Virus record (IMG/VR): IMGVR_UViG_3300043410_000715
Location: 25,711-89,710 of that record
Direction: 5' to 3' (one strand)
Length of the DNA stretch: 64,000 nt
DNA from: a virus
Taxonomy: Duplodnaviria > Heunggongvirae > Uroviricota > Caudoviricetes
The position numbers were made by a program, and so were the translations under genes. Of the stretch, positions 10,838-63,833 are shown piece after piece. Under the pieces are notes generated by a model. The model was given only the letters and a program-made list of their open reading frames with translations. It was not told the origin of the DNA and ran no database searches. Numbering within the stretch: the first letter of the stretch is position 1; each line of letters opens with the position of its first letter.

Positions 10838-11059
10838 TCAATATAGTTTCTTGGGCAAGCTCTGGTCACGCAAGTATTTTTGCCATCTACGCTTGGCTTG
10901 TCCTTTAGCAAGTTTTCGCTTGACAGTGGGTTTGACGAATTCTTGACGGTCGCGGACTTCCTGAATCAATCCTTGTTCAGTAATCTTCTTTTTGAATTTG
11001 CGTAATGCTTTTTCAACATTCCCGTCTTGTACTATTACTCGTCTACCCTTTATACTCAT
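10838..11059 (-). CDS. rpsU: ribosomal protein bS21 homologue
   Basis: 73 aa basic protein. ...VEKALRKFKKK...EVRDRQEFVKPTVKRK aligns with bacterial S21 (ALRRFKR...EVRRREFYEKPTTERKR). Overlaps the clpX stop as ATGA. Confidence 0.8.
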   Translation of the reverse strand: MSIKGRRVIVQDGNVEKALRKFKKKITEQGLIQEVRDRQEFVKPTVKRKLAKGQAKRRWQKYLRDQSLPKKLY

Positions 11060-12258
11060 ATCAATGCTTTTGGTTCTAAAACTTGCTCCTGATTAATATT
11101 TATCTTTTTGATTTTACTTTCACGATATTTCTGCAAATTGAACATATGGGGCATTAGGACCCTCTCGATTTCAGTGTGTAGACCACGGGCACCCGTTTTC
11201 AGTTTCAAGCAATTGTCAACAATCTGGCCAAGTCCGTCATCAGCAAACTCCAACTCAATTTCATCAATGCTGAACAGGTACTTGTATTGCTCAATGTAGT
11301 TGTTTTTCACATTGGTCAGGACATGTTTTAACTCGTCTTTGGACAGTTCTTTAATACTTACAGTAGTCGTGAATCTACCGATAAATTCAGGAATCATTCC
11401 AAATTTAGTTAGGTCGTCGGGGCTTACTTGTGCTAACTCACCCTCTTTGCGCTTATCTCTGATATTTGCCCCAAAGCCAATACTAGTTCCATGTTGTCTA
11501 TTTGTGATGATTTCCTTCAATCCAACGAATGCGCCACCAGCAATGAACAGAATATTCTTTGTGTTGATTTCTAGCATTTCACCACCTGGGTGTTTGCGAC
11601 CACCGCTTGCAGGAATACGACAGACTGTGCCCTCAACTAACTTGAGTAATGCTTGCTGAACGCCCTCACCCGACACGTCACGGGTAACGCTAGTTGATTC
11701 GCCCTTACGTGCAATTTTGTCAATCTCGTCAACAAACACAATTCCACGTTCTGCTAATTTAGCATCACCACCTGCGGCATTGACTAGCATACTAATCATT
11801 GATTCAACGTCATCACCTACATAACCAGCTTCGGTTAAACTTGTTGCGTCTGCTACGACAAAGGGCACCTTGAGATACTTGGCAACTGTCTTAGCAAGTA
11901 ATGTTTTACCACTACCAGTGGGCCCCACAATAAGAACATTACCCTTAGCTATTTCTAAGTCTTTGGGCGGGTGTGTGATTCGCTTATAGTGGTTAGCGAT
12001 AGCAACGCTCAATACAGTTTTAGCACTATCTTGTCCGATAACATGCTGGTCTAAGTACGCCTTGATAGCGATAGGGTCATACTTGACTTCTTCTTTCTTT
12101 TGGTCAGGATCGGCAACGGTAGCGTCATCTTCGATTAATTGTGTGCATAAATCGATACAGTCGCTACAAATAGCAACGTCCTCACCTACTATAAGTTTTT
12201 TAACTTTATCTTTATGATTTCCGCAAAATGAGCAATGGTTTAGTGATTCAAGTGACAT
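11056..12258 (-). CDS. clpX: ATP-dependent Clp protease ATP-binding subunit ClpX
   Basis: 400 aa. N-terminal C4 zinc-binding domain (CSFCGN...CSDC), Walker A GPTGSGKT, Walker B VFVDEIDK, and a ClpX-specific IGFG-type pore-2 loop (IGFGANI). Confidence 0.9.
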   Translation of the reverse strand: MSLESLNHCSFCGNHKDKVKKLIVGEDVAICSDCIDLCTQLIEDDATVADPDQKKEEVKYDPIAIKAYLDQHVIGQDSAKTVLSVAIANHYKRITHPPKDLEIAKGNVLIVGPTGSGKTLLAKTVAKYLKVPFVVADATSLTEAGYVGDDVESMISMLVNAAGGDAKLAERGIVFVDEIDKIARKGESTSVTRDVSGEGVQQALLKLVEGTVCRIPASGGRKHPGGEMLEINTKNILFIAGGAFVGLKEIITNRQHGTSIGFGANIRDKRKEGELAQVSPDDLTKFGMIPEFIGRFTTTVSIKELSKDELKHVLTNVKNNYIEQYKYLFSIDEIELEFADDGLGQIVDNCLKLKTGARGLHTEIERVLMPHMFNLQKYRESKIKKININQEQVLEPKALI

Positions 12259-13957: not shown

Positions 13958-15523
13958 TCAACGCTTTTGGGTAAGATGCTGTTCTATTTCCGAACGTTCC
14001 TTGTCGGATAATAGGTCTATGTCGTACTGCCCATTTTCTATCATTTCGATAAGATATTTGATATATTCCTCATCGTGTAAATATGTGTCCGAAACCTGTT
14101 TGTTCACTTCAATCCAGCGTTTGCTGTCAAACTTGTAAACACGGTTTGGTAATACGTCAACACGAACGAAAGTATCACCTTTTTGTGCAACAGCAGGAAA
14201 TGCTGTTCCAAAATTAGTGTTAACTGATCTGCTAGAATCCGCAGTTAATTTGAATAACTCAGGATGCATTCCTTGCAATACATCTTTAGCCATGTGCTTA
14301 CCATCATAGACTACATAGCCGCCTTCTAGTTCTTTAAATGGTTTTTCTTTTGTAACACCTTCAGTTTGTATTTCAGTTGGAGCAGTTAGATAATCACCGG
14401 GACGTTCAATATCATCGATACCTGCGGCAAGTATTTTTTTGCCATCATCAGCTACTACTTCTGGCTCTGGCTCTGGTTCTTCTACGGGGGTTTCAACTAC
14501 ATCATCAATTGGTGTGGGTTCTGGTTGATAAACCATTGGTGTTGTGTTTTTAAAATGTGTGAATGGTTTAGTCAAATACGGATGCTTATCTAATATAGAT
14601 TCTTCTTTTGCGCTTTCTTGTATTTGCTCTAATTGGTCAGTTGTTAGTGGACCATCATCTGGTTCATATTTAGGTTCATCTTCTAATATAGTTTGAACTT
14701 CTTTTTCATGTTGAACTTTTTCACGTAGTTTGTTTTCTTCTTCAACATCATCGTTATCGTCCCAATCCTTACTTTGGTTAGCCGCAAGAACTAACGCAAT
14801 CGCAAGTGGATCGAACACCACAACTAACAAGATAATAACCCAACGAACAGCGGCTTCAAGCATGTTTTGGTCAGCATTGTCTCCATATATAAGAGCCGCA
14901 ATATATTTGATAGGACCTACTTCTGCTTCTACTTTACGATTCTCAGCCGCAATAGGAGCACGTTCTTCGTTTAGTTTACTGATTTCTTTTTGTGCGTTTG
15001 CAATATCATTTTGTAATAGAGTACGTTCTTTTGCTTGTTGTCTACGAATAGCAACAGCACGTTCTGCACCTTTATCATTGTCAGTTCGACCCAACATCTG
15101 GTCAACTTGTGCATCCATTTGTGTTAATGCTTTACGTGCAGTCTCAATGTTATCTTTTTGTGTCTTAATCTTTTCGTCATACAATGCAAGTTTGGCTTGA
15201 CTATCACCCGAAACAATACCTTGATCCATGTGTGCTTTTGATAGGAAACCAAAGATACCCATGCTTGTCAATAACGCAAGCAATACAACAGCGGGTACCA
15301 AGTACATCTTTAGTACCCAGCCACAACGATGCCAGTATTTACGTAACCAAACTGTCGTGGTGATTTTGCCTACTTCGAGGATAGAACCCATGACGATAAT
15401 AGGGATAACAGCTCCTGCAAAGATAGCAGTTAAGCCTATGATACTATAATAGGCAGCTACTGTACTCAATGACAGTGCTACCAATAAGGTAAGATTGGAA
15501 AGATTTATAATTTTTTTAAGCAT
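13958..15523 (-). CDS. integral membrane protein with long coiled-coil and acidic linker
   Basis: 521 aa. Three N-terminal TM helices, then about 120 aa of coiled coil. A fourth TM follows (WVIILLVVVFDPLAIALVLAA). Next comes a DD/EE-rich linker, and then a roughly 220-aa C-terminal domain. Confidence 0.6.
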   Translation of the reverse strand: MLKKIINLSNLTLLVALSLSTVAAYYSIIGLTAIFAGAVIPIIVMGSILEVGKITTTVWLRKYWHRCGWVLKMYLVPAVVLLALLTSMGIFGFLSKAHMDQGIVSGDSQAKLALYDEKIKTQKDNIETARKALTQMDAQVDQMLGRTDNDKGAERAVAIRRQQAKERTLLQNDIANAQKEISKLNEERAPIAAENRKVEAEVGPIKYIAALIYGDNADQNMLEAAVRWVIILLVVVFDPLAIALVLAANQSKDWDDNDDVEEENKLREKVQHEKEVQTILEDEPKYEPDDGPLTTDQLEQIQESAKEESILDKHPYLTKPFTHFKNTTPMVYQPEPTPIDDVVETPVEEPEPEPEVVADDGKKILAAGIDDIERPGDYLTAPTEIQTEGVTKEKPFKELEGGYVVYDGKHMAKDVLQGMHPELFKLTADSSRSVNTNFGTAFPAVAQKGDTFVRVDVLPNRVYKFDSKRWIEVNKQVSDTYLHDEEYIKYLIEMIENGQYDIDLLSDKERSEIEQHLTQKR

Positions 15524-15535
15524 AACATATATTTA

Positions 15536-16189
15536 TTAGGGTAGTAGTCCCTTATTTCTCTGTACATCTCCACGCATTCGGGCCATAAAATCTTGCCAGA
15601 ATTTACTGCTGTAAAACTCATAGAATTCTTTTTTAGCCCTATTTCTCGTATCATACCATTTCTTGTGTAAGATTGCGGCTTCATCATAATGATTTTCAAA
15701 ATCAAAAAAATCAACTATTTGTGTATAAAATTGCTTGTCTAACACCTCATTAAAAAACACATCTGATTTAATCACTAATTTATTTTCATCAATGACAATG
15801 AGTTTTGAAACCTTGCGGTCAAAATCTTTGAGAAAATTATAGTATAGATCATAGCTTCTTTTAGAAGAAAAGCAAGAAGTTAGGCAACTATAGTGTTCAA
15901 ATGGGATATTCCAATCATCATATGACAAGAACACTGACTTATATTCGGGTTTATCGTCTTTAGGTTCGTGTAGTATTTTAATGAATGATTCAAACTTATC
16001 ATCAAATCTCCATGTAGCTTCATACGGCAACCAATTATAAAAGGAACGCTGATCTGAATAGATTTTATTCAATACAAAATCTATTTTTTTATCCATGGAT
16101 AAATCGCTATCGATTGACTTATCTAAGTACAACAACCAACGCAAATGATTACCACCAGCACCACCTGGAAAAATAATGGCTCTACTCAT
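15536..16189 (-). CDS. hypothetical protein, member of a paralogous family with Gly-rich N-terminal loop (possible sulfotransferase-like fold)
   Basis: 217 aa. N-terminus AIIFPGGAGGNHLRWLL resembles a beta-strand / P-loop / helix start. Paralogues are at 16379-17128, 18462-19235 and 60118-60741. Confidence 0.5.
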   Translation of the reverse strand: MSRAIIFPGGAGGNHLRWLLYLDKSIDSDLSMDKKIDFVLNKIYSDQRSFYNWLPYEATWRFDDKFESFIKILHEPKDDKPEYKSVFLSYDDWNIPFEHYSCLTSCFSSKRSYDLYYNFLKDFDRKVSKLIVIDENKLVIKSDVFFNEVLDKQFYTQIVDFFDFENHYDEAAILHKKWYDTRNRAKKEFYEFYSSKFWQDFMARMRGDVQRNKGLLP

Positions 16190-16391
16190 TCTCTATGATT
16201 CCAAATAAATGCCCGAACGAGTTTACAAACTCATCTATGCCCATTACCAATTTACGAGGTAAATTAGGACCCTGTGATATTAAATATGTAACGAGAAACT
16301 TACCTCGGTTTTCATCTGTGAGTTTTATCTGTATGATTTCAATTTTACTGCCATCATCAAATGTGTATGATTTGCCTACTAAGTCGTGCAT
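16182..16391 (-). CDS. hypothetical small protein
   Basis: 69-aa ORF bridging two paralogue genes with short overlaps at both ends. Confidence 0.35.
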   Translation of the reverse strand: MHDLVGKSYTFDDGSKIEIIQIKLTDENRGKFLVTYLISQGPNLPRKLVMGIDEFVNSFGHLFGIIENE

Positions 16392-17128
16392 GTTATATCC
16401 ATTAATTTTTTGGGTAGATTTTGATACTGCAAATAACGGTCATAACTAGCAACTACATTTGCTGTGATGGTTTTACCAGTAATCTCACTTAATATATTTA
16501 AGATTTTTTCTTTGTTGTTTGTTATATCTGAAAAATTTATTCTATGAATTCTGTTTTGATATTGTTCTGGGATTGAACTTACAAAACTATCCCAATAGTC
16601 TGCTGAAAATTTCTTATTGAACTTGTTAATTCCATTATCCGTTTCCCAATATAATTCAATAAACTTTTTTAGTTCTTGGGAATCTAATTCTTTTAAATTA
16701 GCAATTTCTCTACTTAAAATATTTTTATTTTTTAGATAAAAAGCCCAATAGTAATTTGCAATGATTGGCTCGTCTTTGTAAAAGTTTTTGTAGATGTTTA
16801 ACACATCCACTGTTAACTTTTCTTCTGGTTCATATACAATATATAGTGCTTCCCAATCAGGATATACATTTGTAAATTTTTCAAACCCGATCAAATCTAA
16901 TGGAACACCCGAGACTAATCCAAAATTGTTATCAAATTGTAACTTTAAATAATTGTTTGGATATTCTTCATTTGCAATTTCGGTGATATCTAAAAACACT
17001 CGACCAGCAGTACCATATATAGGATCAATTTCTAGAATAGCTGTTGCATCGTCATTGAGCAGTAATCCCAATAAATCTGATATGAATGATCCACGTGACC
17101 CTTCTTGGTAGTTAACAATATAAATCAT
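16379..17128 (-). CDS. hypothetical protein, paralogue family (Gly-rich N-terminal loop)
   Basis: 249 aa. N-terminus IYIVNYQEGSRGSFISDLLGLL parallels the PRSGSTLL-type 5'-phosphosulfate-binding loop of sulfotransferases. Similarity is weak. Confidence 0.5.
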   Translation of the reverse strand: MIYIVNYQEGSRGSFISDLLGLLLNDDATAILEIDPIYGTAGRVFLDITEIANEEYPNNYLKLQFDNNFGLVSGVPLDLIGFEKFTNVYPDWEALYIVYEPEEKLTVDVLNIYKNFYKDEPIIANYYWAFYLKNKNILSREIANLKELDSQELKKFIELYWETDNGINKFNKKFSADYWDSFVSSIPEQYQNRIHRINFSDITNNKEKILNILSEITGKTITANVVASYDRYLQYQNLPKKLMDITCTT

Positions 17129-17850
17129 CTACTAATCGGGTTGAAAAATACTTTAGTAAAGTAATACAACAAATCAATATTGTATTTTGATGCAGAACCA
17201 AAGTTGGGATTACTAGGATCAATGTGATGATTTAAGTGTAAGTTCTCACCTGCAAAAATTGCATAGTTAGTCCATAGTGGCATGTTTACAGGTCCATTAT
17301 CGTCATGTGCATAGTAATTAAAAAATGATGAAAATACTATATCAGACAAGTTAAACAATGCAAAACTTAATAACGCAACTTGATAATCAATGATAAACAA
17401 TATCCCTAGATTGACAAAGTATAACAACCAATAATATTTGTTAACAAACATAACATCTGGTTTGCGTATGATATCTTTGATGGGTACAGTAAGTGAAATT
17501 TCATTATATTGCGATGTTAGCAATCTCCACAGTCCGATAGAGCGTGGATGGGGGTCTTTGTCTGTGTCAGAATATTTGTGGTGTGAACGATGCATCACAA
17601 CATAATCAACTGGCTTTGCTGTTCCCACAAAGACCATGGACCACAATAATACAATACGACCAAATATGTTGGGTTCTAGTTGTTTATGAGATAACCATCG
17701 ATGGTATCCTAAACCCGATAATCTACCTATGAATAAAAAGAAAATGAAATATGAAATGGCTTTTGCTAGTGTACCGTCATACATCAGTAATCCGATAACA
17801 CTAGCAATTGCAAAAAAGTAAAATCTTAACGTATACTTATTAATCCTCAT
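17125..17850 (-). CDS. membrane fatty-acid desaturase / hydroxylase family protein (His-box di-iron enzyme)
   Basis: 241 aa. Multiple TM segments. Three histidine boxes: HRWLSH, HRSHHKY, HLNHH. Confidence 0.6.
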   Translation of the reverse strand: MRINKYTLRFYFFAIASVIGLLMYDGTLAKAISYFIFFLFIGRLSGLGYHRWLSHKQLEPNIFGRIVLLWSMVFVGTAKPVDYVVMHRSHHKYSDTDKDPHPRSIGLWRLLTSQYNEISLTVPIKDIIRKPDVMFVNKYYWLLYFVNLGILFIIDYQVALLSFALFNLSDIVFSSFFNYYAHDDNGPVNMPLWTNYAIFAGENLHLNHHIDPSNPNFGSASKYNIDLLYYFTKVFFNPISR

Positions 17851-18403
17851 CCTCGCCAGCCGCCTCTAACTCAGCATCAAACTCAGCCATCAATTTGTTA
17901 TATCGTGCTTTTTCTTCTTTGCCGTGTTCTGTCATTTCAACATCACTGTCACACATTGGACAAACTTCTTTGTCATGGTGAGATTCTTCGTCACTGCTGT
18001 AATAATCTTCAATCACTGTACCATCTTCTCGGTAATACTGTGTAAGTGTTTCATATTTACCGCCCTGCCAACGACACTTCGTACATTTATGTGTTGGTTC
18101 TGGTTCCTTTTCAGGTTCTACCCAACTATCTTCATCACCCAACTCATAAGTAACATCATAACCGCCCTTGCGGTCAGTCCAGCAATCATCATATTGAAAG
18201 TCCCACTCAAGGTCAACATCATTGTCGTATGCGTCATTGATGACTTCCTCAAAGTCTACTTCACCATCTTCGATTTGTTTAAGCATGGTTGCAATTTCAT
18301 CTTCATCCAAATCAGGATAAATCTCACTCAACAATGCTTCATCAAGTTCAATAGCGTATTGGCGATCATGTTGATGCCATTCATGTTTAACGATTGTAAC
18401 CAT
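17840..18403 (-). CDS. acidic protein with zinc-ribbon (CxxC...CxxC)
   Basis: 187 aa. About 35% Asp/Glu. Motifs CTKCRWQ ... CPMCD. Confidence 0.5.
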   Translation of the reverse strand: MVTIVKHEWHQHDRQYAIELDEALLSEIYPDLDEDEIATMLKQIEDGEVDFEEVINDAYDNDVDLEWDFQYDDCWTDRKGGYDVTYELGDEDSWVEPEKEPEPTHKCTKCRWQGGKYETLTQYYREDGTVIEDYYSSDEESHHDKEVCPMCDSDVEMTEHGKEEKARYNKLMAEFDAELEAAGEDED

Positions 18404-18461
18404 AGTTTAAGCCCTCTGTATATTTAATAAATTGTAACAGTATTAATTCTAATAGCAATGT

Positions 18462-19235
18462 TTATGGGTTTTCTTGTAAAAACCAAGGACAATACTTTTG
18501 AAAAATGTCGTATTTGATATTGTCATAATGTTCAAAAGATTTTTCAACTGTATCGTTATACTCAATTTTTAACCATTTAGCCATCTTTTCCAATGTACGG
18601 TATTTACCGTTTTCTTTAGAAAACAAATGCTTGTATTTTAAATTTAAAATACGTTCACTGTCTTGTAGCGCAGTGCCATAAAATTGTGCATTAATTTTAG
18701 CCCTTAAATACCTATTGGTTAATCCTGTTTTGAGCAGGTATGTGATTCGTTCAGAATCAGATAATAGTTGTTTATCAAAAACTATACCATGAACTGAAAA
18801 CACTCTACGATATGCATATAATAATTGTAGTTCCTCGCTCTCAAGTGGCTTATCATTTACGAATGAATCAATTCTTGGAAAAATGTTTTTTATAATTTGA
18901 TTCAGTAAAATTTCATTGATATCTTCATCATCTACGTTAATAACAATAACTTTGTTATTCTGAAAATAAATATTTTTATCCCAAACAGGAATGTCAGGAA
19001 AGTCATGTGTTATAAATATAGGTACACATTCATACACCATATCAGATTGAGGTTTAAATATCAGTGGATCATCTATTTTTCTAATATATGATTTTTCTTG
19101 GTGAACGTGTGCGGAACCGTACTCAGTGTATTCTATTGGATCATCAATTTTATTGACCATGCCATTTAATACGTTAGCAATCAATCTTCCCCTAGCACCC
19201 GCTGGAAACGATATAGTAAATCCGTTATGATTCAT
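18462..19235 (-). CDS. hypothetical protein, paralogue family (Gly-rich N-terminal loop)
   Basis: 257 aa. N-terminus FTISFPAGARGRLIANVL. Paralogous to 15536-16189 and 16379-17128. Confidence 0.5.
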   Translation of the reverse strand: MNHNGFTISFPAGARGRLIANVLNGMVNKIDDPIEYTEYGSAHVHQEKSYIRKIDDPLIFKPQSDMVYECVPIFITHDFPDIPVWDKNIYFQNNKVIVINVDDEDINEILLNQIIKNIFPRIDSFVNDKPLESEELQLLYAYRRVFSVHGIVFDKQLLSDSERITYLLKTGLTNRYLRAKINAQFYGTALQDSERILNLKYKHLFSKENGKYRTLEKMAKWLKIEYNDTVEKSFEHYDNIKYDIFQKYCPWFLQENP

Positions 19236-20093: not shown

Positions 20094-21443
20094 TCATTTA
20101 TCGTCCCTAAATCTTACAAAGCGAGGGAATCGCAAACTGTAAGTACCGTCTTGATTCTGTGTAATCACATCGCACAAGATTTCAGCAGTACGACCAATGA
20201 CATAACGGCTATCACGCCAATAAGTATCTCTGTCAGCATCAGAAAAACCACTACCAACATTGACACTAATCTCCTTTCCGTCATCCACACCAGCACAAAC
20301 AAGTGCTCCCAAGCGTCCCTCATTACGTCCAGTACCTTCTTCAACACCGATCACCTCCAAATCTACAGTGATAACAGGCTTCCACTTCATCCAGTCTGTC
20401 GAACGTTTGCACTGATATGGTGCTTCCATTTCTTTAATCATAATGCCTTCAAAGCCTGCTTTGACATTATCTTGTGCATAACGTTCAAGTTGGTCACGAC
20501 CTGCGGCAGTGTCTAAGTCAACCATGATATGTGGCAACAATTCAACGTTGGTTAGATTGTCAACGACTGGTCGCATAGCATCAAGCAATGCAATACGCTT
20601 ACGCAACTGAGCATTCCAATGACCACGACGGAAGTCATCAAGAGGAACAATGTCAAACACATTGAGAACAGAATCCTCAGCTTGAACAGCAGTTTTGCGG
20701 CGTGCTTGTCGCATCAACTCTTGGAAGCTGTTGCCGATCACTTCACCGTCAAGTACGAAACCGTTAACGAGACTGCGACCTTGATCCACACCGTTGCAAG
20801 CACGAACAATCTTCACATAACTTTTCTGGAGTTGTTCTTCAATGTGAGTAAAGTTATCAAACACTTTACCATTGCGACTGAAACAAATTACAGTCACTTC
20901 ACCGTCATCAGCAGGGATGACCATGAACAACGCACGAACACCATCCAACTTAGGCTCAAGTCGTTTAGTGCCCTTCATTTCGGGGCGCCCTTCACTGTTA
21001 GTTGCTAGTTGACAACCAAAGACTGGAATCTCATAGTCAGTCTTTTTACAGATTTTATTGATTGTAGTAGAACTAATACCGCATCGCATGTCACGGCGTA
21101 GTACAGGGGCTAAGAATGTGTTCCATTCTTCACTATCAAACAATTCCATTGTTGCTTGAATAGCATCACGTGCGGCGTGACCTGTCAACTTACGTTGTGA
21201 CAAGTCTAACATTAACTCATTGAATTGATCCCAAGGATTCTCTGCACCAGTGATTCCAATTGATTCAGGGATTTGCTTAACACCAAATGTCACGTAGGGA
21301 TTGTAGCAGGCTTTGAGAAAGCCCAAGAAAATCTTAGCATTGATAGAGCCAAGAACAGTTGCCTCAAGTGCTTGTTTGAGCACATCTTCTTTATGAAGGC
21401 GACTGTCACTTTCATTCAACTTACGAATCCACGATGCCGACAT
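20094..21443 (-). CDS. ATP-dependent DNA ligase
   Basis: 449 aa. Adenylation motif I KLDGVRA (EPKLDGVRALFMV) plus nucleotidyltransferase motifs of the T4 gp30 / T7 ligase family downstream. Confidence 0.85.
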   Translation of the reverse strand: MSASWIRKLNESDSRLHKEDVLKQALEATVLGSINAKIFLGFLKACYNPYVTFGVKQIPESIGITGAENPWDQFNELMLDLSQRKLTGHAARDAIQATMELFDSEEWNTFLAPVLRRDMRCGISSTTINKICKKTDYEIPVFGCQLATNSEGRPEMKGTKRLEPKLDGVRALFMVIPADDGEVTVICFSRNGKVFDNFTHIEEQLQKSYVKIVRACNGVDQGRSLVNGFVLDGEVIGNSFQELMRQARRKTAVQAEDSVLNVFDIVPLDDFRRGHWNAQLRKRIALLDAMRPVVDNLTNVELLPHIMVDLDTAAGRDQLERYAQDNVKAGFEGIMIKEMEAPYQCKRSTDWMKWKPVITVDLEVIGVEEGTGRNEGRLGALVCAGVDDGKEISVNVGSGFSDADRDTYWRDSRYVIGRTAEILCDVITQNQDGTYSLRFPRFVRFRDDK

Positions 21444-32904: not shown

Positions 32905-33188
32905 ATTAACTTTTTAGCACGAGCATCTAACTCTTTTTTCTCAAGGTCAAGCATTTCCCATGCCATGACGTTCATCCATTTTGCTAATGCTTCTTTGCCT
33001 TTATCAGTTAAGTGGCTATAATCTCTACCAACAGCACTGTGATAGTACATTTCTCGGTCTTTGATAATCTCAAATAGCCCTGCGTAGATTTGTTTATGTA
33101 GTATGTGATTCATGTAATGCGCCTTCGTATGTGCAATTGAGCCACTTACTATAAGTTTGAGCATTTTCAGCAATTTTATTAAGGTCAT
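32883..33188 (-). CDS. hypothetical protein
   Basis: 101-aa ORF. Its start lies inside the RNase H ORF, so the true start may be further downstream. Confidence 0.4.
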   Translation of the reverse strand: MTLIKLLKMLKLIVSGSIAHTKAHYMNHILHKQIYAGLFEIIKDREMYYHSAVGRDYSHLTDKGKEALAKWMNVMAWEMLDLEKKELDARAKKLMWDELKK

Positions 33189-34110
33189 ATTTTCCGCAGA
33201 ATTTCATAAAGTGAATGCCTACTTGTGGTGTATTTTGTGTTCTAACAGAATCACGAATACGTTGGTCAACTTCAGCCTTAATGTCATCAGGCTGTGCAGT
33301 CAAATCAATTAACATTCTGTTGCGTTTGTAATCATCAAGAACCTTGTGTTGAACATTATTGTGGTCAACCCAAGTTTGCAACATGAAGTTATTCCAATTA
33401 AAACCTTGTTTGTTACGATCCTCAAATGCTTCTTTGATGCCAATTTTGTTTTTAGTACCAACCTCACGCACACCTGGATATGCACTGAATACGTTGTCGC
33501 CACCGTCGCCTCGAATAATCTTTTTAAACAAGAGATATTCAGGACTGTCTTCTAATAGTTTAGGATTCTTTTGTTTGTCTAATGCTGGTTTGCCGTTATC
33601 TTTGAAATATCCATTGAGCGTGATAAGTTCATTTGTGACTCCATTGTATTGGAACACCTTATCACTAACAAGCTGAACATAATCGGAATCAGTAGAAATA
33701 ATGTAATGCGTGTCATTTGGGTGTAAGTGAATAAAACGGGCAATCAAGTCATCTGCCTCAGCACGTTCGTGCCGAAGAACAGAAACGTTGGTTTTTTCTT
33801 TGAGAAAGGTAGTAAAAGCCTCGTATGTTTCCCAGAACATTTCATTTTCTTCTTTTTCAGCCTGGGTAACAGACATAGCATCAACGATACGATTTTTCTT
33901 GTAAGGTTCGTACACATCCTTACGCCATGAGCGACCCTCAAGACAGAATACAACGTGATCGATTCCATAGTTACGCACAGCCATGTTAACTGATGCGAAC
34001 GTTAGATGTAGTGCCATGCCAATCTTTTCCCAAGTATCACTGTTACGTGATGCAACGTGACGGGCACGAAAGAAAGTATTAGCAGTATCAATGAGAGCGT
34101 ATTTTTTCAT
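33094..34110 (-). CDS. rnh: RNase H / 5'-3' flap exonuclease (T4 rnh-like, FEN family)
   Basis: 338 aa. N-terminal segment ...VVFCLEGRSWRKDVYEPYKKNR... parallels T4 RNase H (...IVLCIDNAKSGYWRRDFAYYYKKNRG). Acidic metal-site clusters are typical of FEN enzymes. Confidence 0.75.
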   Translation of the reverse strand: MKKYALIDTANTFFRARHVASRNSDTWEKIGMALHLTFASVNMAVRNYGIDHVVFCLEGRSWRKDVYEPYKKNRIVDAMSVTQAEKEENEMFWETYEAFTTFLKEKTNVSVLRHERAEADDLIARFIHLHPNDTHYIISTDSDYVQLVSDKVFQYNGVTNELITLNGYFKDNGKPALDKQKNPKLLEDSPEYLLFKKIIRGDGGDNVFSAYPGVREVGTKNKIGIKEAFEDRNKQGFNWNNFMLQTWVDHNNVQHKVLDDYKRNRMLIDLTAQPDDIKAEVDQRIRDSVRTQNTPQVGIHFMKFCGKYDLNKIAENAQTYSKWLNCTYEGALHESHTT

Positions 34111-34164: not shown

Positions 34165-34575
34165 TTAGCTCACTTCCGTCCTACCATCGCCTATGTCTCT
34201 AGTCTGAACCACTCTCATTTCAGCACGATAACGGTTCTCTGGATCCGCTTGCTGTTGTTCATACATTTCAAGTGCAACATTGCGACATACCTGAGTCCAC
34301 CAGCGGTCTACTATCTCAGCATCCGTATCTTCCTTTTTCATCATGTAGCCTGCTTTAACCAATCGTGCTACAAAAATTTCATTGAAGTCAAGTTCAAACG
34401 CTCCTGAGTTAATATCACTAGGATCAATATCCATACTCACTACAGTGACGTATGGTTCACCTGCTTGTGTCGCTAACTCTTTAGGAGAAAGTTTCTTTTC
34501 TTTCTTGGGCGCTGGTGGGGTCTTCTGAGGATCAGGTAATGCCTTCTTTTTAAATAGTCTGTCAAATAATCCCAT
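34165..34575 (-). CDS. hypothetical protein with Lys/Pro-rich N-terminal segment
   Basis: ORF 34165-34644 trimmed to Met24 (MGLFDRLFKKKALPDPQKTPPAPKKEKK...) to limit overlap with uvdE. Confidence 0.45.
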   Translation of the reverse strand: MGLFDRLFKKKALPDPQKTPPAPKKEKKLSPKELATQAGEPYVTVVSMDIDPSDINSGAFELDFNEIFVARLVKAGYMMKKEDTDAEIVDRWWTQVCRNVALEMYEQQQADPENRYRAEMRVVQTRDIGDGRTEVS

Positions 34576-59434: not shown

Positions 59435-60121
59435 TCAGAACCAAGATTTCTCAGTCAACTCAAGCTCGTGACTGCCAAATCTTTTCAATCTATTTAAAAA
59501 CTCTGTAGTTTTAGGAGTAATTACACCCGTCATTTGAAACGTAACTCTAGGATTGTGTCCTGCGTTTGCAGTACTATGTGGTAGATTTTGCCAATCAAAT
59601 GTTGTCAAATCACCAGCATGCCACTGCTGATGTAGATAATTACCATAACTCCAGAAATGCCCTGGCTCCCAGTCAGTCAATGCTAATTGAATTCGCATAA
59701 CTGTGTACGGCGCCTCAGGTGCCCACTTTTCTAACTTATCTAAATGTAAGTTCCATACTTCGCCAGGCATCTGAACGTGGATACGATTCATACAATCTTG
59801 CAATCCAAACAAGTCACTAATCTTTTGTAATTTTTCAGGTATAGTCCAATTTAAATGAGTGATTGTATAATCTTTACCATAACCCGAACGTTCTAAGTCA
59901 TAATCTTCTGCGGCTAGTTCTTCTTCAGGTCTAACTTTGCCTACAGCACCTCTAGTACGCCACGTTGCTGGTTTTGCATTTTCAATGATTGCTTCTAGTT
60001 CAGGTTTAAAGTCTGCAATAATCTTACCTAACTTAATAACCTTGTCTTGTTCAGGATCATTTTTGAAACTATCAAAGTGATAGTTGCTACGAATTTTAGT
60101 AGAGTCCCAACTTGATTTCAT
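59435..60121 (-). CDS. hypothetical protein, possible cupin/2OG-oxygenase-like (HxD ... HxxR)
   Basis: 228 aa. NLHLDK and AGHNPRVTF spaced like an AspH-type facial triad. Weak. Confidence 0.45.
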   Translation of the reverse strand: MKSSWDSTKIRSNYHFDSFKNDPEQDKVIKLGKIIADFKPELEAIIENAKPATWRTRGAVGKVRPEEELAAEDYDLERSGYGKDYTITHLNWTIPEKLQKISDLFGLQDCMNRIHVQMPGEVWNLHLDKLEKWAPEAPYTVMRIQLALTDWEPGHFWSYGNYLHQQWHAGDLTTFDWQNLPHSTANAGHNPRVTFQMTGVITPKTTEFLNRLKRFGSHELELTEKSWF

Positions 60122-60741
60122 ATTACTTTTACCTCTATATCTTGTTCTGTGTAATTTTGATTATATTCGACTGGCGGACTACTGATCCCTAGATTCAATG
60201 CAAGTCTTTGGTTTGAATAAACAATGAAGCCATCATGTTTTTCCCATGCTGTTTCGATACCTGCATTTTGTCTAGCGATGATTTTAGCCATCATTTTCAA
60301 ATCAATATAGTACTTATCATAACTGGGATATGTAATGTTAAAATGACCGCACTTAACCCACCAGCCAAGGCATGAATCATCACTGCGATGAACTAATACT
60401 ATAGGACATTCAGGCCACAACTCTTTTAGATATTGAATGTTTTCATAATAACTAAAGATGTGGCTCTTAATGATACGAACACCCTCACCTGAGAATGGTT
60501 TATCAAAAAGTTCTTCTGCTTGTTTTTTAGTCAATGTAGACATTGATTCAGGCAAATCAAATTCCATGCCTGGATCAAAGTATGCACCTAAATGCATTAA
60601 CTGCATAGTACCACTAGCATCATGGTAGTATGTGCGCTCGTCACTATAATCACTACGGTCGATGCTAGGGCTGTAGTAAATGTTCTTTACTACACTTGAC
60701 CACTTACTACCCGGGGCACCTGCTACAAATATGTATTTCAT
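60118..60741 (-). CDS. P-loop-like protein, paralogue family (possible sulfotransferase fold)
   Basis: 207 aa. N-terminus IFVAGAPGSKWSSVVKNI. Confidence 0.5.
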   Translation of the reverse strand: MKYIFVAGAPGSKWSSVVKNIYYSPSIDRSDYSDERTYYHDASGTMQLMHLGAYFDPGMEFDLPESMSTLTKKQAEELFDKPFSGEGVRIIKSHIFSYYENIQYLKELWPECPIVLVHRSDDSCLGWWVKCGHFNITYPSYDKYYIDLKMMAKIIARQNAGIETAWEKHDGFIVYSNQRLALNLGISSPPVEYNQNYTEQDIEVKVI

Positions 60742-61313
60742 AAGTCCTCAATTAAGTCTAATATGTATTGTCGTGTATGTATGTTGACTTCACGTTCTGG
60801 ATGCCAACCGATACCCAACATTCTATTTGACTTATTTAACGCCAATTCTACGATACCATTTTTATCTTGCTGTAATATTTCAAATCCAGGAGCAACTGTA
60901 TCAAGTTGAATAGTATGATGACAAGTAACTTCAAACTGTGGTAACTCTACTTTAACATTGTCGTATGGATTATCCATTAACTTATGTGTGCCACCCATAA
61001 CATGATTAATGAAATGAGCACCACGACAGATACCCATAACAGGAGTATTAGTCAATAAACATTGTTGAATCAAGCTATGTTCATAGTGGTCACGCAATGG
61101 GTAATGATTGTCACGCCATGTTTTAATGCCGGGCATATCATTACCACCTGCTAATATGATTAAGTCAAACTCATCTGTTTGTGGCACAACACCATGACAG
61201 CATAACGGAACAATTTCATGTCCTGCTAGAAAGTCATACCATTCGTAATTAATAGCCGCATGCCACGTATCACGTAACTTGCGGGTCATTTCCATTGATA
61301 AACCTATTTTCAT
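60738..61313 (-). CDS. class I glutamine amidotransferase-like / gamma-glutamyl hydrolase family protein
   Basis: 191 aa. Nucleophile elbow GICRGAH. His (CHHT) and Glu (WHPE) follow downstream in the arrangement of peptidase C26 / PuuD-type enzymes. Confidence 0.65.
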   Translation of the reverse strand: MKIGLSMEMTRKLRDTWHAAINYEWYDFLAGHEIVPLCCHGVVPQTDEFDLIILAGGNDMPGIKTWRDNHYPLRDHYEHSLIQQCLLTNTPVMGICRGAHFINHVMGGTHKLMDNPYDNVKVELPQFEVTCHHTIQLDTVAPGFEILQQDKNGIVELALNKSNRMLGIGWHPEREVNIHTRQYILDLIEDL

Positions 61314-62269
61314 TCTGGTTTAATCTTTCGTGCAAATGGTTGCCATTGTTGACGCAATCGTGTCATACTAGCACGAATACCTTCAGGGCTATGTTCATCT
61401 GGGCTAATAAAAATAAAGTTCTTATCAAATTGTTCTTTAACTTCTTTACTGCGTATGGCAGGGACAAAGTTATTACGATACCAATCTTGTATTTCTTGTG
61501 GTGTACCTTTTGGTAGCATCAAGTTCCAGCAAGCATAAACATTTAAACCCGGAACATAATCTTTCATTAGTGGTGTCTTTTCGAATCCCGCAATAGGCAC
61601 TTCGCTTGCTAATCCTATTAGTTTTAGTTTACCTGCTTGTACCATTGGTGCACCCACAGCAATTGGAAACACCCCAAACTCCATATGCCCAGCTAACACA
61701 TCGGTCATCGCTTGTGCTGGACCTTTGTACAAGCTGGTTTCTACTGTGTCTTTAACGGGCTTTACACCTGCTACAAAGTATTCAACTGCTAGTTTGTGTG
61801 CCGCGCCACCTACAGCAAATGTAATTGGACGCTTGCCTGCACGAACCTCATCAATCAGTTTCTTTGGTGTATCAATGTCACTTTTAATTCTAGCGTAGAA
61901 TGCTAGTGGTGCTTTACCAATGTTAGCTACACCTTCCCAAGCCATAGCATCAAATTTAACACTATCAGCATACCAAATCTCTGCTGTTACAAACGTTGAT
62001 TGACAGCTTGGCATAGCAACATGATGACCATCTGCCGGCAGTGTGTTAAAATAATTCATGCCGATATTGCCGTCAGCTCCAGGTTTGTATTCCGGTGCCC
62101 ATTTAAATGATGGGTTTTTTTCTTCTACAATTTTTGCTACGATACGATAACTGATTTCGTTACCTGCTCCCGGTCCATTTGGAAATACAACTGTTACGGG
62201 TTTTGTTGGTTGCCATGCGAATGATGACAGAGTGAATAGTGTGAGTAGTGTGCCTAATATTTTTTTCAT
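61310..62269 (-). CDS. tctC: TctC/Bug-family periplasmic substrate-binding protein (tripartite tricarboxylate transporter component)
   Basis: 319 aa with signal peptide. Bug-family blocks (PNGPGAGNEI...VAKIVEE, GAAHKLAVEYF, GKLKLIG). Confidence 0.7.
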   Translation of the reverse strand: MKKILGTLLTLFTLSSFAWQPTKPVTVVFPNGPGAGNEISYRIVAKIVEEKNPSFKWAPEYKPGADGNIGMNYFNTLPADGHHVAMPSCQSTFVTAEIWYADSVKFDAMAWEGVANIGKAPLAFYARIKSDIDTPKKLIDEVRAGKRPITFAVGGAAHKLAVEYFVAGVKPVKDTVETSLYKGPAQAMTDVLAGHMEFGVFPIAVGAPMVQAGKLKLIGLASEVPIAGFEKTPLMKDYVPGLNVYACWNLMLPKGTPQEIQDWYRNNFVPAIRSKEVKEQFDKNFIFISPDEHSPEGIRASMTRLRQQWQPFARKIKPE

Positions 62270-62282
62270 TTGTTCCTCGTTT

Positions 62283-62306
62283 AAAAAGGGGAGTGATTAG
62301 CTCCCC
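62283..62306 (-). terminator. rho-independent terminator (GGGGAG-n7-CTCCCC followed by U-tract on the minus strand)
   Basis: Minus strand reads GGGGAGCTAATCACTCCCCTTTTT, between the ferritin-like gene stop and the tctC start. Confidence 0.5.
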
Positions 62307-62314
62307 AAATAATA

Positions 62315-63013
62315 TTACCAACCGTATGCTTCGGTTACTAATTTCTTACCTTCTGCGTTTGCAGAAGTGTTCTTGCATGAAATCTCATACAAATCTTTAC
62401 GCATGTTAGCAACTAGTGCCTCAATACGTGCCTGTGTCTCAGCATCGCCAACAAACTTCTCTAGTGAGCGAGCACCGATGTTAGCGTGGAAACCTTCATC
62501 TTTGGCAATCTTACGATATGCACTACTGATGAAACTATCTTCAATGCAATCAGCCATTTGATTCCAAACTGCTTCAGCACGACCTTCAGCAACTAACTGA
62601 TATGCGGCTAATGCGGCTGCATCTGTTTCTGCTTCGTACTTAGCTAATAGTGATGCACCCTTCGCTGTATTAGCTTTTGCTTCGTCAGCAATTGCTTTTT
62701 CAACGTCTAGTTTTTCACCACTGATGTGCTCAATAACTTCCTTAACTAAACGGAAGTGTACAGCTTCATCGTGTGCTTGTTGTGTCAACAACTGTAGTTC
62801 TACTGGGTCTGTGTCTGCTGGTAAATTTGCGATTGTTTGGCTGATTTCAACCATGTTCATACGCTCGTTAACCATACGACCAACGAAGTGGTCTACCAAT
62901 TCTTGTTGGCTTGGCTTGCTGTCAAAGTAGTCTTTAACGTTAAGTTGTGAAGCCTTGAATAGAGCTTGGTTGTCGTCAACAATCTTCTGAACGAATTGTT
63001 TTGATGTTAGCAT
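62315..63013 (-). CDS. ferritin-like / heme-oxygenase-like di-iron protein (function unknown)
   Basis: 232 aa, all-alpha. Paired E...H motifs (DEAVHF, DEGFHA) are spaced like di-iron carboxylate sites. Confidence 0.5.
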   Translation of the reverse strand: MLTSKQFVQKIVDDNQALFKASQLNVKDYFDSKPSQQELVDHFVGRMVNERMNMVEISQTIANLPADTDPVELQLLTQQAHDEAVHFRLVKEVIEHISGEKLDVEKAIADEAKANTAKGASLLAKYEAETDAAALAAYQLVAEGRAEAVWNQMADCIEDSFISSAYRKIAKDEGFHANIGARSLEKFVGDAETQARIEALVANMRKDLYEISCKNTSANAEGKKLVTEAYGW

Positions 63014-63113
63014 CGGGATCTCCTTTTATTTTAATGCTGTTAAGTAGAGATAAGTATATTTATAAAAATTTGTTATCCATACAAATTATTTATCAAAATA
63101 ATGAAATTTTTCT

Positions 63114-63833
63114 ATGAACACTAAAATTTTTAACCTACTAGTGAAAAATTTGCAACAGTCGTTTAATTTACCAAAGTATGCAAGTATTTCAATTGACGAA
63201 AACACCGTGGTAGATCAACTACCATGGACTCCTGCACGTTATCGCAAGTTCAAAGATGCTGTAGAAGCTGAATTGAGCTTACCATGTGATTATGTGGGAA
63301 CTATAAAAGAGATTACACACGATTTAAGTGAACGATACATTAATCGCTTTTTCGGGGAAATCTGGAAACCTAGGACTAATGATTATGATTACACTGGCTG
63401 GCAACTTGCTGAAGAAATTAATGCGCTTTCTCCGAGGTCCGTCCTCGATGTGGGATGCGGATACCATCCATTTAAGGGCAGAATACACAATTTGGTCGGC
63501 ATCGATCCTTATAACAACTGTGCTGACTACATGGTGGATATTCTTGATTACGTGGGAAGTCACGATGTTGTGGTGGCACTCGGATCTATCAACTTTAATT
63601 CACGTGATGAAATCGAATCTCGCTTCGCAAGGTGTGTAGAATTACTAGACAAAGGTGGAAAGTTCTATCTACGTGCTAATCCTGGAATCACACATAAAAC
63701 AGGACCATACGTTGATATCTTCCCGTGGTCGTTTGAAGTTGTAAAAGAGTTTGCTGACAAGTACAATCTAAAACTAGAAACGTTTAAGAAAGACGCTAAC
63801 GATAGATTATACTTTGTCTACACTAAACTTTAA
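63114..63833 (+). CDS. class I SAM-dependent methyltransferase
   Basis: 239 aa. Motif I VLDVGCGYHPF. Acidic residue after beta-2 (GIDPY). Rossmann-fold MTase topology. Confidence 0.65.
   Translation: MNTKIFNLLVKNLQQSFNLPKYASISIDENTVVDQLPWTPARYRKFKDAVEAELSLPCDYVGTIKEITHDLSERYINRFFGEIWKPRTNDYDYTGWQLAEEINALSPRSVLDVGCGYHPFKGRIHNLVGIDPYNNCADYMVDILDYVGSHDVVVALGSINFNSRDEIESRFARCVELLDKGGKFYLRANPGITHKTGPYVDIFPWSFEVVKEFADKYNLKLETFKKDANDRLYFVYTKL

Follow-up and report, generated by a model that had tools for sequence, protein, structure and literature searches.

The fatty-acid desaturase gene and the four genes for proteins with an N-terminal glycine-rich loop (pA, pB, pC, and pD) considered here are best explained as separately acquired accessory genes that form neither one expanded family nor a conserved lipid-modification pathway. 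They lie in a window of 64,000 nucleotides (the whole stretch of DNA that was analyzed) from an uncultivated, aquatic phage that is related to the T4 superfamily and belongs to a jumbo-phage-related lineage. Taken as a whole, the account that we find fairly probable is one of an AT-rich island of independent cargo, with a desaturase that keeps its metal ligands and the two paralogues pB and pC, and with pD as a separate family. The ORF list confirmed the ORFs at 15536-19235 as well as pD at the coordinates given by an earlier, sequence-only reading, and all are on the minus strand. As that reading described, the N terminus of each of pA to pD is a short hydrophobic stretch that leads into a glycine-rich segment. 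The features discussed below are as follows.

pA, 15536..16189, minus strand: 217-aa orphan with the loop FPGGAGGNH after the N-terminal strand
p69, 16182..16391, minus strand: small conserved ORF (69 aa) that overlaps both pB and pA
pB, 16379..17128, minus strand: 249 aa, putative remote paralogue of pC
Desaturase, 17125..17850, minus strand: 241 aa, predicted membrane di-iron enzyme, a short acyl desaturase of stearoyl-CoA/DesC (delta-9) type
Zinc-ribbon protein, 17840..18403, minus strand: acidic, 187 aa, CxxC...CxxC, encoded by a backbone gene that is conserved in this phage lineage
pC, 18462..19235, minus strand: 257 aa, predicted sulfotransferase fold, noncanonical loop FPAGARGR, conserved His77
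pD, 60118..60741, minus strand: 207 aa, predicted sulfotransferase fold, loop GAPGSxWS, invariant His94, majority Arg119
C26 hydrolase (Peptidase_C26/GATase), 60738-61313, minus strand: upstream of pD, Pfam Peptidase_C26 E value of 2e-18
TctC-type solute-binding protein, 61310-62269, minus strand: upstream of pD, Pfam TctC E value of 3.9e-16
Methyltransferase-like gene, 63114..63833, plus strand: candidate partner of pD, similar to a Methyltransf_23 domain fused to a pD homologue

The island at 15.5 to 19.2 kb is flanked by a DNA ligase gene and the gene for a conserved 521-aa membrane protein. The GC content of pA, pB, pC, and the desaturase gene is 29 to 34%, versus 38 to 45% in the conserved flanking genes, and a DNA search of GenBank phages returned no near-identical DNA to the block. 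The acidic zinc-ribbon protein, which the sequence-only reading had also picked out, has homologues of 63 to 74% identity in the related phages L001 and L003, where they carry additional C-terminal zinc ribbons, and another in L005. Similarly, p69 has homologues of 55% identity in L001 and L003 and one, found by eye, in L005, and its position in the relatives is always immediately upstream of the pA site. The cargo genes themselves are distributed differently from phage to phage: L001 has the zinc-ribbon gene, pB (36% identical to the copy in the window), p66, and pA, with desaturase and pC absent; L003 has only pA among the cargo genes; L005 and L006 have only pC; and L009, whose core genes are 67 to 93% identical to those of the window, has a desaturase at another site that is just 53% identical. 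Given these differing gene combinations and the relocation of the desaturase in one relative, we read the block as an AT-rich variable island and not as a pathway, that is, as genes that would have been acquired as independent cargo.

In the window, the zinc-ribbon gene, the desaturase gene, pB, p69, and pA are tightly packed, with overlaps of 4 to 13 nt, so they are almost certainly cotranscribed and a local functional link is conceivable. The likely cotranscription of desaturase, pB, p69, and pA would suit the alternative that the four glycine-loop proteins are one lineage-specific sulfotransferase family which, together with the desaturase, modifies host lipids or glycans. We consider this alternative unlikely, however, as the related phages hold different subsets of these genes and the desaturase of L009 sits at another locus; the desaturase-sulfotransferase module that had been proposed thus dissolves into genes carried independently.

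The desaturase assignment, in turn, was borne out. The protein scores 35.6 bits against the Pfam family FA_desaturase (PF00487; cutoff, 29.7 bits; E = 1.1e-8; residues 37 to 214), and its three histidine boxes follow in the order HX4H, HX2HH, HX2HH (HRWLSH at 50-55, HRSHH at 87-91, and HLNHH at 205-209). An NxxxH motif (N178 and H182) precedes box 3; by sequence position only, and in light of the SCD1 structures, we take these two residues to correspond to SCD1 metal ligands. As anticipated from the sequence-only reading, the spacing of the boxes is conserved, and when the protein is aligned with its homologues from L009 (53% identity) and Pelagibacter phage Mosig, neither the boxes nor N178 and H182 vary. 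Among PDB entries, those of human and mouse SCD1 match best, with an alignment that covers boxes 1 and 2. The other identities that had been offered for this enzyme, a fatty-acid hydroxylase, sterol desaturase, or carotene hydroxylase, were rejected, as the protein scores only 14.7 bits for PF04116 (cutoff, 31 bits; E = 0.043). Such desaturases have four transmembrane helices in two hairpins; here, a Kyte-Doolittle scan showed clear hydrophobicity for residues 10-29 and 141-177, while a stretch at about 33-45 stayed under the cutoff used. The relatives from cells are FA_desaturase proteins that are likewise short (215 to 250 aa), the nearest of which share at most 32% identity and stem from metagenome-assembled genomes of Bdellovibrionales, Actinomycetota, Planctomycetota, and Bacteroidota, with no cyanobacteria among them. 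The match to the NCBIfam DesA-family equivalog (32 bits; cutoff, 400) allows no equivalog assignment. A homing endonuclease suspected by eye next to the L009 desaturase was without Pfam support.

From these motifs and matches, we predict that the histidine-box protein is a fatty-acid desaturase of the membrane-bound stearoyl-CoA/DesC (delta-9) kind; its delta-9 regiospecificity and acyl substrate are inferred. With all expected metal ligands kept, it would most likely add a cis double bond to host acyl chains during infection, which experiments have established for cyanophage desaturases. Since it scores barely above the Pfam threshold and is at most 32% identical to the cellular relatives found, it might alternatively carry out another oxidative chemistry or act on another substrate.

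The four glycine-loop proteins had been taken for a lineage-specific family, a grouping that shrinks to a single pair. Pairwise BLASTP among pA, pB, pC, and pD gave no match. Comparison of the pB and pC families by hhalign yielded a probability of 85.5% (P = 5.7e-6; score of 45.3 over 216 columns), with a maximum score of 22.4 in a control of 20 column shuffles; pA scored 20.4 against pB or pC, within the range of shuffle noise, and pD reached probabilities below 1% against each of the other three. By these profile comparisons, pB and pC are the only detectably related proteins of the four, and the pD family, with at least 263 clusters from aquatic phages, is distinct from pA, pB, and pC; both observations speak against a common sulfotransferase family. 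A loose pattern for the N-terminal strand and glycine-rich loop matched 8 of the 95 ORFs in the window, among them an NAD-dependent epimerase and a lipoprotein signal peptide, and picked up pA and pD while missing pB and pC. The motif is therefore nonspecific, and a common N-terminal glycine-rich loop is not evidence of shared ancestry.

This applies in particular to pA, whose sequence resembles those of pB, pC, and pD in the N-terminal motif alone. It had no match in Pfam, PHROGs, NCBIfam, or PDB, and its 13 homologues, all at least 49% identical, contain no Pfam domain; the invariant residues include F7, P8, G9, G10, G13, N14, H15, R17, W18, H74, E75, P76, and H167. Two candidate explanations for pA were dismissed: its GGAGG loop as that of an SDR/Rossmann protein or SAM methyltransferase, for which both a conserved YxxxK and a downstream acidic strand end were missing by eye, and a viral ORF (L014:181-1080) as a bridge to other families, which has a pA-like N terminus yet reached just 13% in hhalign. 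pB has three database homologues in addition to the L001 copy. None of pA, pB, and pC had a tblastn match in 50,697 GenBank phage records. In viral contigs, alignment-based scans found two loci each for pA and pC, single-protein scans with pA and pC found nothing, and the pB scan found none; in metagenomes, searching with the alignment of pC and with that of pB confirmed no relatives among the matches listed.

Structure models, for which only database proteins served as input, predict a sulfotransferase alpha/beta fold for pC (from a model built on only 8 sequences) and for pD, and the same fold is inferred for pB from its homology to pC. The sulfotransferase fold suggested by the sequence-only reading thus holds, at the level of models and homology, for these three, and that three of the four proteins have or inherit it is the other point in favor of a single sulfotransferase family. 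Searches of PDB with sequence profiles of pA, pB plus pC, and pD gave no matches or chance-level ones (e.g., serpin and phycobilisome linker). pA, pB, and pC had no Pfam sulfotransferase match at an E value of 1 or lower, and the best such score of pD was 16.4 bits for Sulfotransfer_3, against a cutoff of 27; weak Sulfotransfer_3 matches occur in 12 of 76 pD-family members (best E = 3.6e-4).

The canonical 5'-phosphosulfate-binding loop of sulfotransferases reads P-(K/R)-S-G-(T/S)-T. The loops found here (PGGAGGN in pA, QEGSRGS in pB, PAGARGR in pC, and the consensus PGSxWS in the pD family) are all noncanonical: where Lys or Arg is expected after the loop proline, the residue is Gly or Ala, or the proline itself is absent. 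Likewise, the Arg...Ser site for the 3'-phosphate after the central strand, which was mapped by eye on the sequences with the models' secondary structure as a guide, lacks the arginine in pA (VFLSYDDW), pB (YIVYEPEE), and pC (VIVINVDDED), whereas pD (VLVHRSDD) has R119, the majority residue of its family, albeit conserved in less than 90% of members. The PAPS-binding loop seen at first sight is thus not a canonical one in the alignments, and the missing PAPS motifs count further against a shared sulfotransferase family; because all four proteins are without the canonical PAPS-binding residues, sulfotransferase activity is no more than putative. The other idea of that reading, a degenerate P-loop, fares no better, as no GK[ST] of the Walker A motif GxxxxGK[ST] is present in the four N-terminal loops or the family consensus sequences. 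We consider it very unlikely that these proteins are degenerate P-loop kinases acting on nucleotides or nucleosides and not sulfotransferase-like.

The altered donor site could also mean that at least pB, and perhaps pA and pC as well, derive from the sulfotransferase fold but have lost catalysis and act as binding proteins during takeover, for example by sequestering a nucleotide or metabolite of the host or by inhibiting a host enzyme or defense system. Consistent with this, the 5'-phosphosulfate loop is without its catalytic Lys/Arg and the 3'-phosphate site without its Arg, pB is without the His conserved in pC, and the pA, pB, and pC families are tiny and restricted to one phage clade. 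Their genes moreover lie in an AT-rich region with fast turnover, and such phage regions generally house host-takeover genes. However, G13, R15, G16, and K116-N117 are kept in the joint alignment of pB and pC, which suggests a maintained ligand site, and we regard loss of catalysis as possible but rather doubtful. In our main reading, the N-terminal strand-loop-helix predicted for pB, pC, and pD would probably accommodate a nucleotide-activated donor, with donor-binding residues unlike those of PAPS sulfotransferases. pC and pD, in which the next strand is followed by a conserved His, would probably transfer a group to an acceptor.

It is conceivable, if very unlikely, that the sulfotransferase-fold proteins form a new class of group-transferases in phages whose activated donor is not PAPS. 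pD would be the foremost candidate; its family is fused or adjacent to a methyltransferase, and its gene is part of an overlapping string with those of the C26 hydrolase and the TctC-type protein. pD lies 41 kb from pB and pC and is chained to these two upstream genes by 4-nt overlaps. The product of the methyltransferase-like gene at 63114-63833 is 38% identical (E = 6e-43) to a Methyltransf_23 domain fused to the pD homologue of contig L014 and 34% identical to the product of a gene two positions past the pD homologue of L012, so that gene fusion and neighborhood tie the pD family to a putative SAM methyltransferase. This recurrent fusion is a concrete, testable lead. The best NCBIfam match of the C26 hydrolase is gamma-glutamyl-CDP-amidate hydrolase, at 71 bits far under the 250-bit cutoff. 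The latter enzyme belongs to the O-methyl-phosphoramidate pathway of Campylobacter, in which CDP-phosphoramidate 3'-phosphate, a PAPS look-alike, is the final donor (PMC11800397). If a non-PAPS donor were indeed used, such chemistry could serve to decorate the envelope of the host or components of the phage itself. The sole match of pD in GenBank phages is to uncultured Marine virus AG-345-D19, and further pD relatives that were looked up lay only on contigs of about 1.5 kb.

Compared with PAPS-dependent sulfotransferases (cytosolic SULTs, tyrosylprotein sulfotransferases, and bacterial Sulfotransfer_3 proteins), none of the four proteins reaches the Pfam threshold, the Lys/Arg-Ser-Gly-Thr-Thr signature is absent from their loops, and of the 3'-phosphate Arg...Ser, pD has a part (R119) and pA, pB, and pC have nothing. 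Published Sulfotransfer_3 genes of marine phages include those of OM43 phage genomes and of Synechococcus phage S-SRM01 (PMC10580990). Like the genes in the window, these belong to aquatic phages and to the sulfotransferase superfamily, but they are directly recognized by Pfam PF13469, unlike pA, pB, and pC. As the sulfotransferase-fold proteins of the window illustrate, sequence orphans in variable regions of phages can conceal a recognizable enzyme fold with an altered cofactor site, and the identity of donor and acceptor could uncover new host-modification or antidefense chemistry.

Delta-9 desaturases, too, are known auxiliary genes, in this case of cyanomyophages, where the DesC-like vFAD-I and vFAD-II (Roitman et al. 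2017, PMC5776448) are experimentally delta-9 enzymes. With phage desaturases of this kind and phage sulfotransferase-family genes (PMC10580990) both already on record, the functions considered here are not foreign to T4-like phages, contrary to what had been supposed. SCD1 (PDB 4ZYO and 4YMK) and the desaturase in the window share HRxxSH, HRxHHK(Y/F)S(D/E)T..DPH, the third box HxxHH, and NxxxH before box 3, although the match is weak (E = 0.007 to 0.03) and the phage protein, with about 100 residues fewer, has none of the eukaryotic N- and C-terminal extensions. vFAD-I, vFAD-II, and the Mosig FA_desaturase are likewise membrane proteins of the FA_desaturase family with three His boxes, encoded by auxiliary genes of T4-related aquatic myophages. 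Yet the window enzyme shares no more than 26.5% identity with the Mosig protein, has no cyanophage match at an E value of 1e-3 in GenBank phages, and differs from the cyanophage enzymes in being short (241 aa) and in having noncyanobacterial relatives. If active, it would extend the manipulation of host membrane lipids by phages, so far shown for cyanomyophages only, to another aquatic lineage, one that is related to jumbo phages and carries a noncyanobacterial type of enzyme.

The genes of the sequence-only reading all lie on the minus strand, at the coordinates it gave; they are listed here with their neighbours in transcription order, with the distant pD last.

Genes of the block, and pD
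20094-21443, minus: DNA ligase, first in transcription order
two small ORFs, minus: between DNA ligase and pC
18462-19235, minus: pC, 257 aa
17840-18403, minus: acidic zinc-ribbon protein, 187 aa, after pC
17125-17850, minus: His-box enzyme (desaturase), 241 aa
16379-17128, minus: pB, 249 aa
16182-16391, minus: 69-aa ORF, between pB and pA
15536-16189, minus: pA, 217 aa
13958-15523, minus: 521-aa membrane/coiled-coil protein, last in order, after pA
60118-60741, minus: pD, 207 aa, 41 kb from the block

Overlaps of 4-13 nt link the zinc-ribbon gene, the desaturase gene, pB, the 69-aa ORF and pA. No close relative of the phage is present in GenBank; the DNA polymerase it encodes shares 42-48% identity with the enzymes of jumbo phages (e.g., Atu_ph07, Phosso and RaK2) and has more distant matches in T4-like phages and cyanomyophages. 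A ClpX-like AAA+ ATPase with a ClpX zinc finger is encoded at 11056-12258, and on a related contig (L001:12015-15050) ribosomal protein S21, HSP20 and ClpS are encoded beside such an ATPase.

pA to pD had been proposed to form a four-member, lineage-specific expansion. Pairwise BLASTP gave no match among the four, and database searches returned 13 homologues of pA (all at least 49% identical), three of pB and five of pC, none with a Pfam domain; unlike these very small families, that of pD comprises 263 cluster representatives at E<=1e-3. Initial hhalign comparisons among the families yielded probabilities of 1-14%. Once the alignments had been enlarged by one relative of pB (from L001) and two of pC (from contigs L005 and L006), pB matched pC over 216 columns with 85.5% probability (P 5.7e-6, score 45.3), compared with scores of 13.3 for the reversed control and at most 22.4 for column-shuffled ones (n=20). 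The score of pA versus pB or pC, 20.4, is within the noise range, and pD reached probabilities below 1% with each of the others. With a profile match above controls for pB-pC and the other pairs at noise, pB and pC are remote paralogues and no other pair is detectably related; the proposed four-member expansion is not supported, and pD falls into a separate family. A loose pattern of N-terminal strand plus Gly-rich loop matches 8 of the 95 ORFs in the window, including an NAD-dependent epimerase and a lipoprotein; this feature is a mark of nucleotide-binding folds generally, not of one family. Resemblances between pA and pC, judged by eye only, comprise the N-terminal motif, a strand-His element (ILHEP vs ITHDFP) and a late strand-helix element. 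Elsewhere, L014:181-1080 encodes a 299-aa protein with a pA-like N terminus (VRFKGGCGGATYSWFL), adjoining TctA, a TctC-like gene and a pD-methyltransferase fusion; its hhalign match to the pA family (13%, score 28.3) is suggestive, not significant.

The idea that these proteins are sulfotransferase-like survives at the level of the fold: pC and pD are predicted to adopt a sulfotransferase fold, which pB would share by homology. It does not extend to the cofactor site: all four proteins lack P-(K/R)-S-G-T-T, the canonical 5'-phosphosulfate loop. None of them passes a Pfam sulfotransferase model or carries a Walker A motif. The loop residue after Pro is Gly or Ala, with pB lacking the Pro. Past the central strand, pA, pB and pC have no 3'-phosphate Arg, and pD has it only as the majority residue (R119). 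An invariant His is kept in pC (H77) and pD (H94) after the strand that bears the catalytic His in SULTs, a position occupied by Asn, Lys or Thr in the pB family. The departures in loop and Arg make the cofactor site non-canonical. Judging from these residues, the four proteins could handle PAPS in another manner, depend on a different activated donor or bind a ligand without catalysis; true PAPS-dependent sulfotransfer is unproven and, on balance, doubtful.

pD lies in a gene string with 4-nt overlaps (within 59435-63833) that also encodes a 228-aa protein without assigned function.

Partners of pD
61310-62269: TctC-type solute-binding protein, pD gene string
60738-61313: Peptidase_C26/GATase hydrolase, pD gene string
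63114-63833, plus: methyltransferase-like gene, homologous to the domain fused to pD homologues

Several proteins homologous to pD carry a fused Methyltransf_23 domain, and the 63114-63833 product shares 38% identity with that domain (E 6e-43). On contig L012, the second gene after a pD homologue encodes a methyltransferase homologous to this product, and one fusion gene adjoins TctA and a TctC-like gene. The uncultured, psbA-carrying Marine virus AG-345-D19 has three pD-like genes (L098:6228-7756, L097:6962-7804), of which two stand in tandem and immediately follow a 1615-aa tail-fibre-like ORF, so at least one cyanophage-like genome has several copies from the pD family. On another contig, a pD homologue overlaps by 4 nt with the next gene (L011:4015-4695), whose 226-aa product has an N-terminal strand and loop of its own (FIYISFVSDTLGH); this product matches the pD family at 12% in hhalign and has no similarity to the 228-aa protein after pD in the window. 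The best NCBIfam match of the C26 hydrolase, at 71 bits far under the cutoff of 250, is gamma-glutamyl-CDP-amidate hydrolase, which belongs to the methyl-phosphoramidate pathway of Campylobacter. As its last donor this pathway has a nucleotide that is phosphorylated at the 3' position and resembles PAPS (PMC11800397). A tie of pD and the C26 hydrolase to such a donor is a lead, not a result.

Does the block then form a functional module? The 75-kb contig L001, from a related phage, has the ligase, the zinc-ribbon protein, a homologue of pB (36%), the small ORF, pA and the 536-aa protein, but neither desaturase nor pC. Of the block genes, L003 has only the zinc-ribbon gene, the small ORF and pA, while L005 and L006 hold ligase, pC and the zinc-ribbon gene and lack pA, pB and desaturase. 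L009 comes from a related phage whose core genes share 67-93% identity with those at 29.2-40.2 kb of the window; its desaturase (only 53% identity) sits at another site, between homologues of 34168-34467 and 33097-34104. GC content is 29-34% in the accessory genes pA, pB, pC and desaturase (about 15300-19200) and 38-45% in the conserved neighbours, namely DNA ligase, the zinc-ribbon protein and the 521-aa membrane protein. The block is a variable island whose genes are gained or lost independently; their tight packing in this genome implies co-transcription but does not demonstrate a shared pathway. With relatives holding differing subsets and the L009 desaturase located elsewhere, the suggested desaturase-plus-sulfotransferase pathway of lipid or glycan modification loses its footing. 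Two ORFs (409 and 150 aa; L009:3322-4967) precede that desaturase, have neither a counterpart at the matching window site nor a Pfam match, and may have come in together with it. The zinc-ribbon protein, too, varies: in relatives it measures 285-290 aa (L001:6242-7099, L003:6927-7799) and bears additional C-terminal CxxC pairs, and L005 has a separate 181-aa acidic protein in place of the extra part.

The desaturase assignment itself was borne out. The 17125-17850 product scores above the Pfam threshold for FA_desaturase (35.6 bits vs 29.7) and fails the FA_hydroxylase (14.7 vs 31) and Lipid_desat models. Its His boxes, HRWLSH (50-55), HRSHH (87-91) and HLNHH (205-209), and an NxxxH motif (N178/H182) are invariant in an alignment with the L009 homologue, 53% identical, and the annotated FA_desaturase of Pelagibacter phage Mosig. 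The closest solved structures are human and mouse stearoyl-CoA desaturase, aligned across boxes 1 and 2, including HRxHHK(Y/F)S(D/E)T..DPH. The nearest cellular relatives found (<=32% identity) come from diverse bacterial MAGs and are likewise short, FA_desaturase proteins of ~215-250 aa, so the small size of the phage protein is nothing unusual within this subgroup. His boxes, Pfam score and SCD relatives together point to an SCD/DesC-type (delta-9-type) acyl desaturase, with regiospecificity and substrate beyond what sequence can tell.

Phage delta-9 desaturases have been described previously, and the delta-9 activity of DesC-like cyanomyophage enzymes was shown by experiment (PMC5776448), so that for a T4-related phage a lipid desaturase is an auxiliary gene of a familiar kind. 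Phage Sulfotransfer_3 genes have likewise been reported, without assigned function (PMC10580990; PMC8290583). What is new here is a divergent desaturase of non-cyanobacterial type in another phage lineage, the recognition that two or three families of orphan proteins combine a predicted sulfotransferase fold with an altered cofactor site, and the recurrent association of pD with a methyltransferase.
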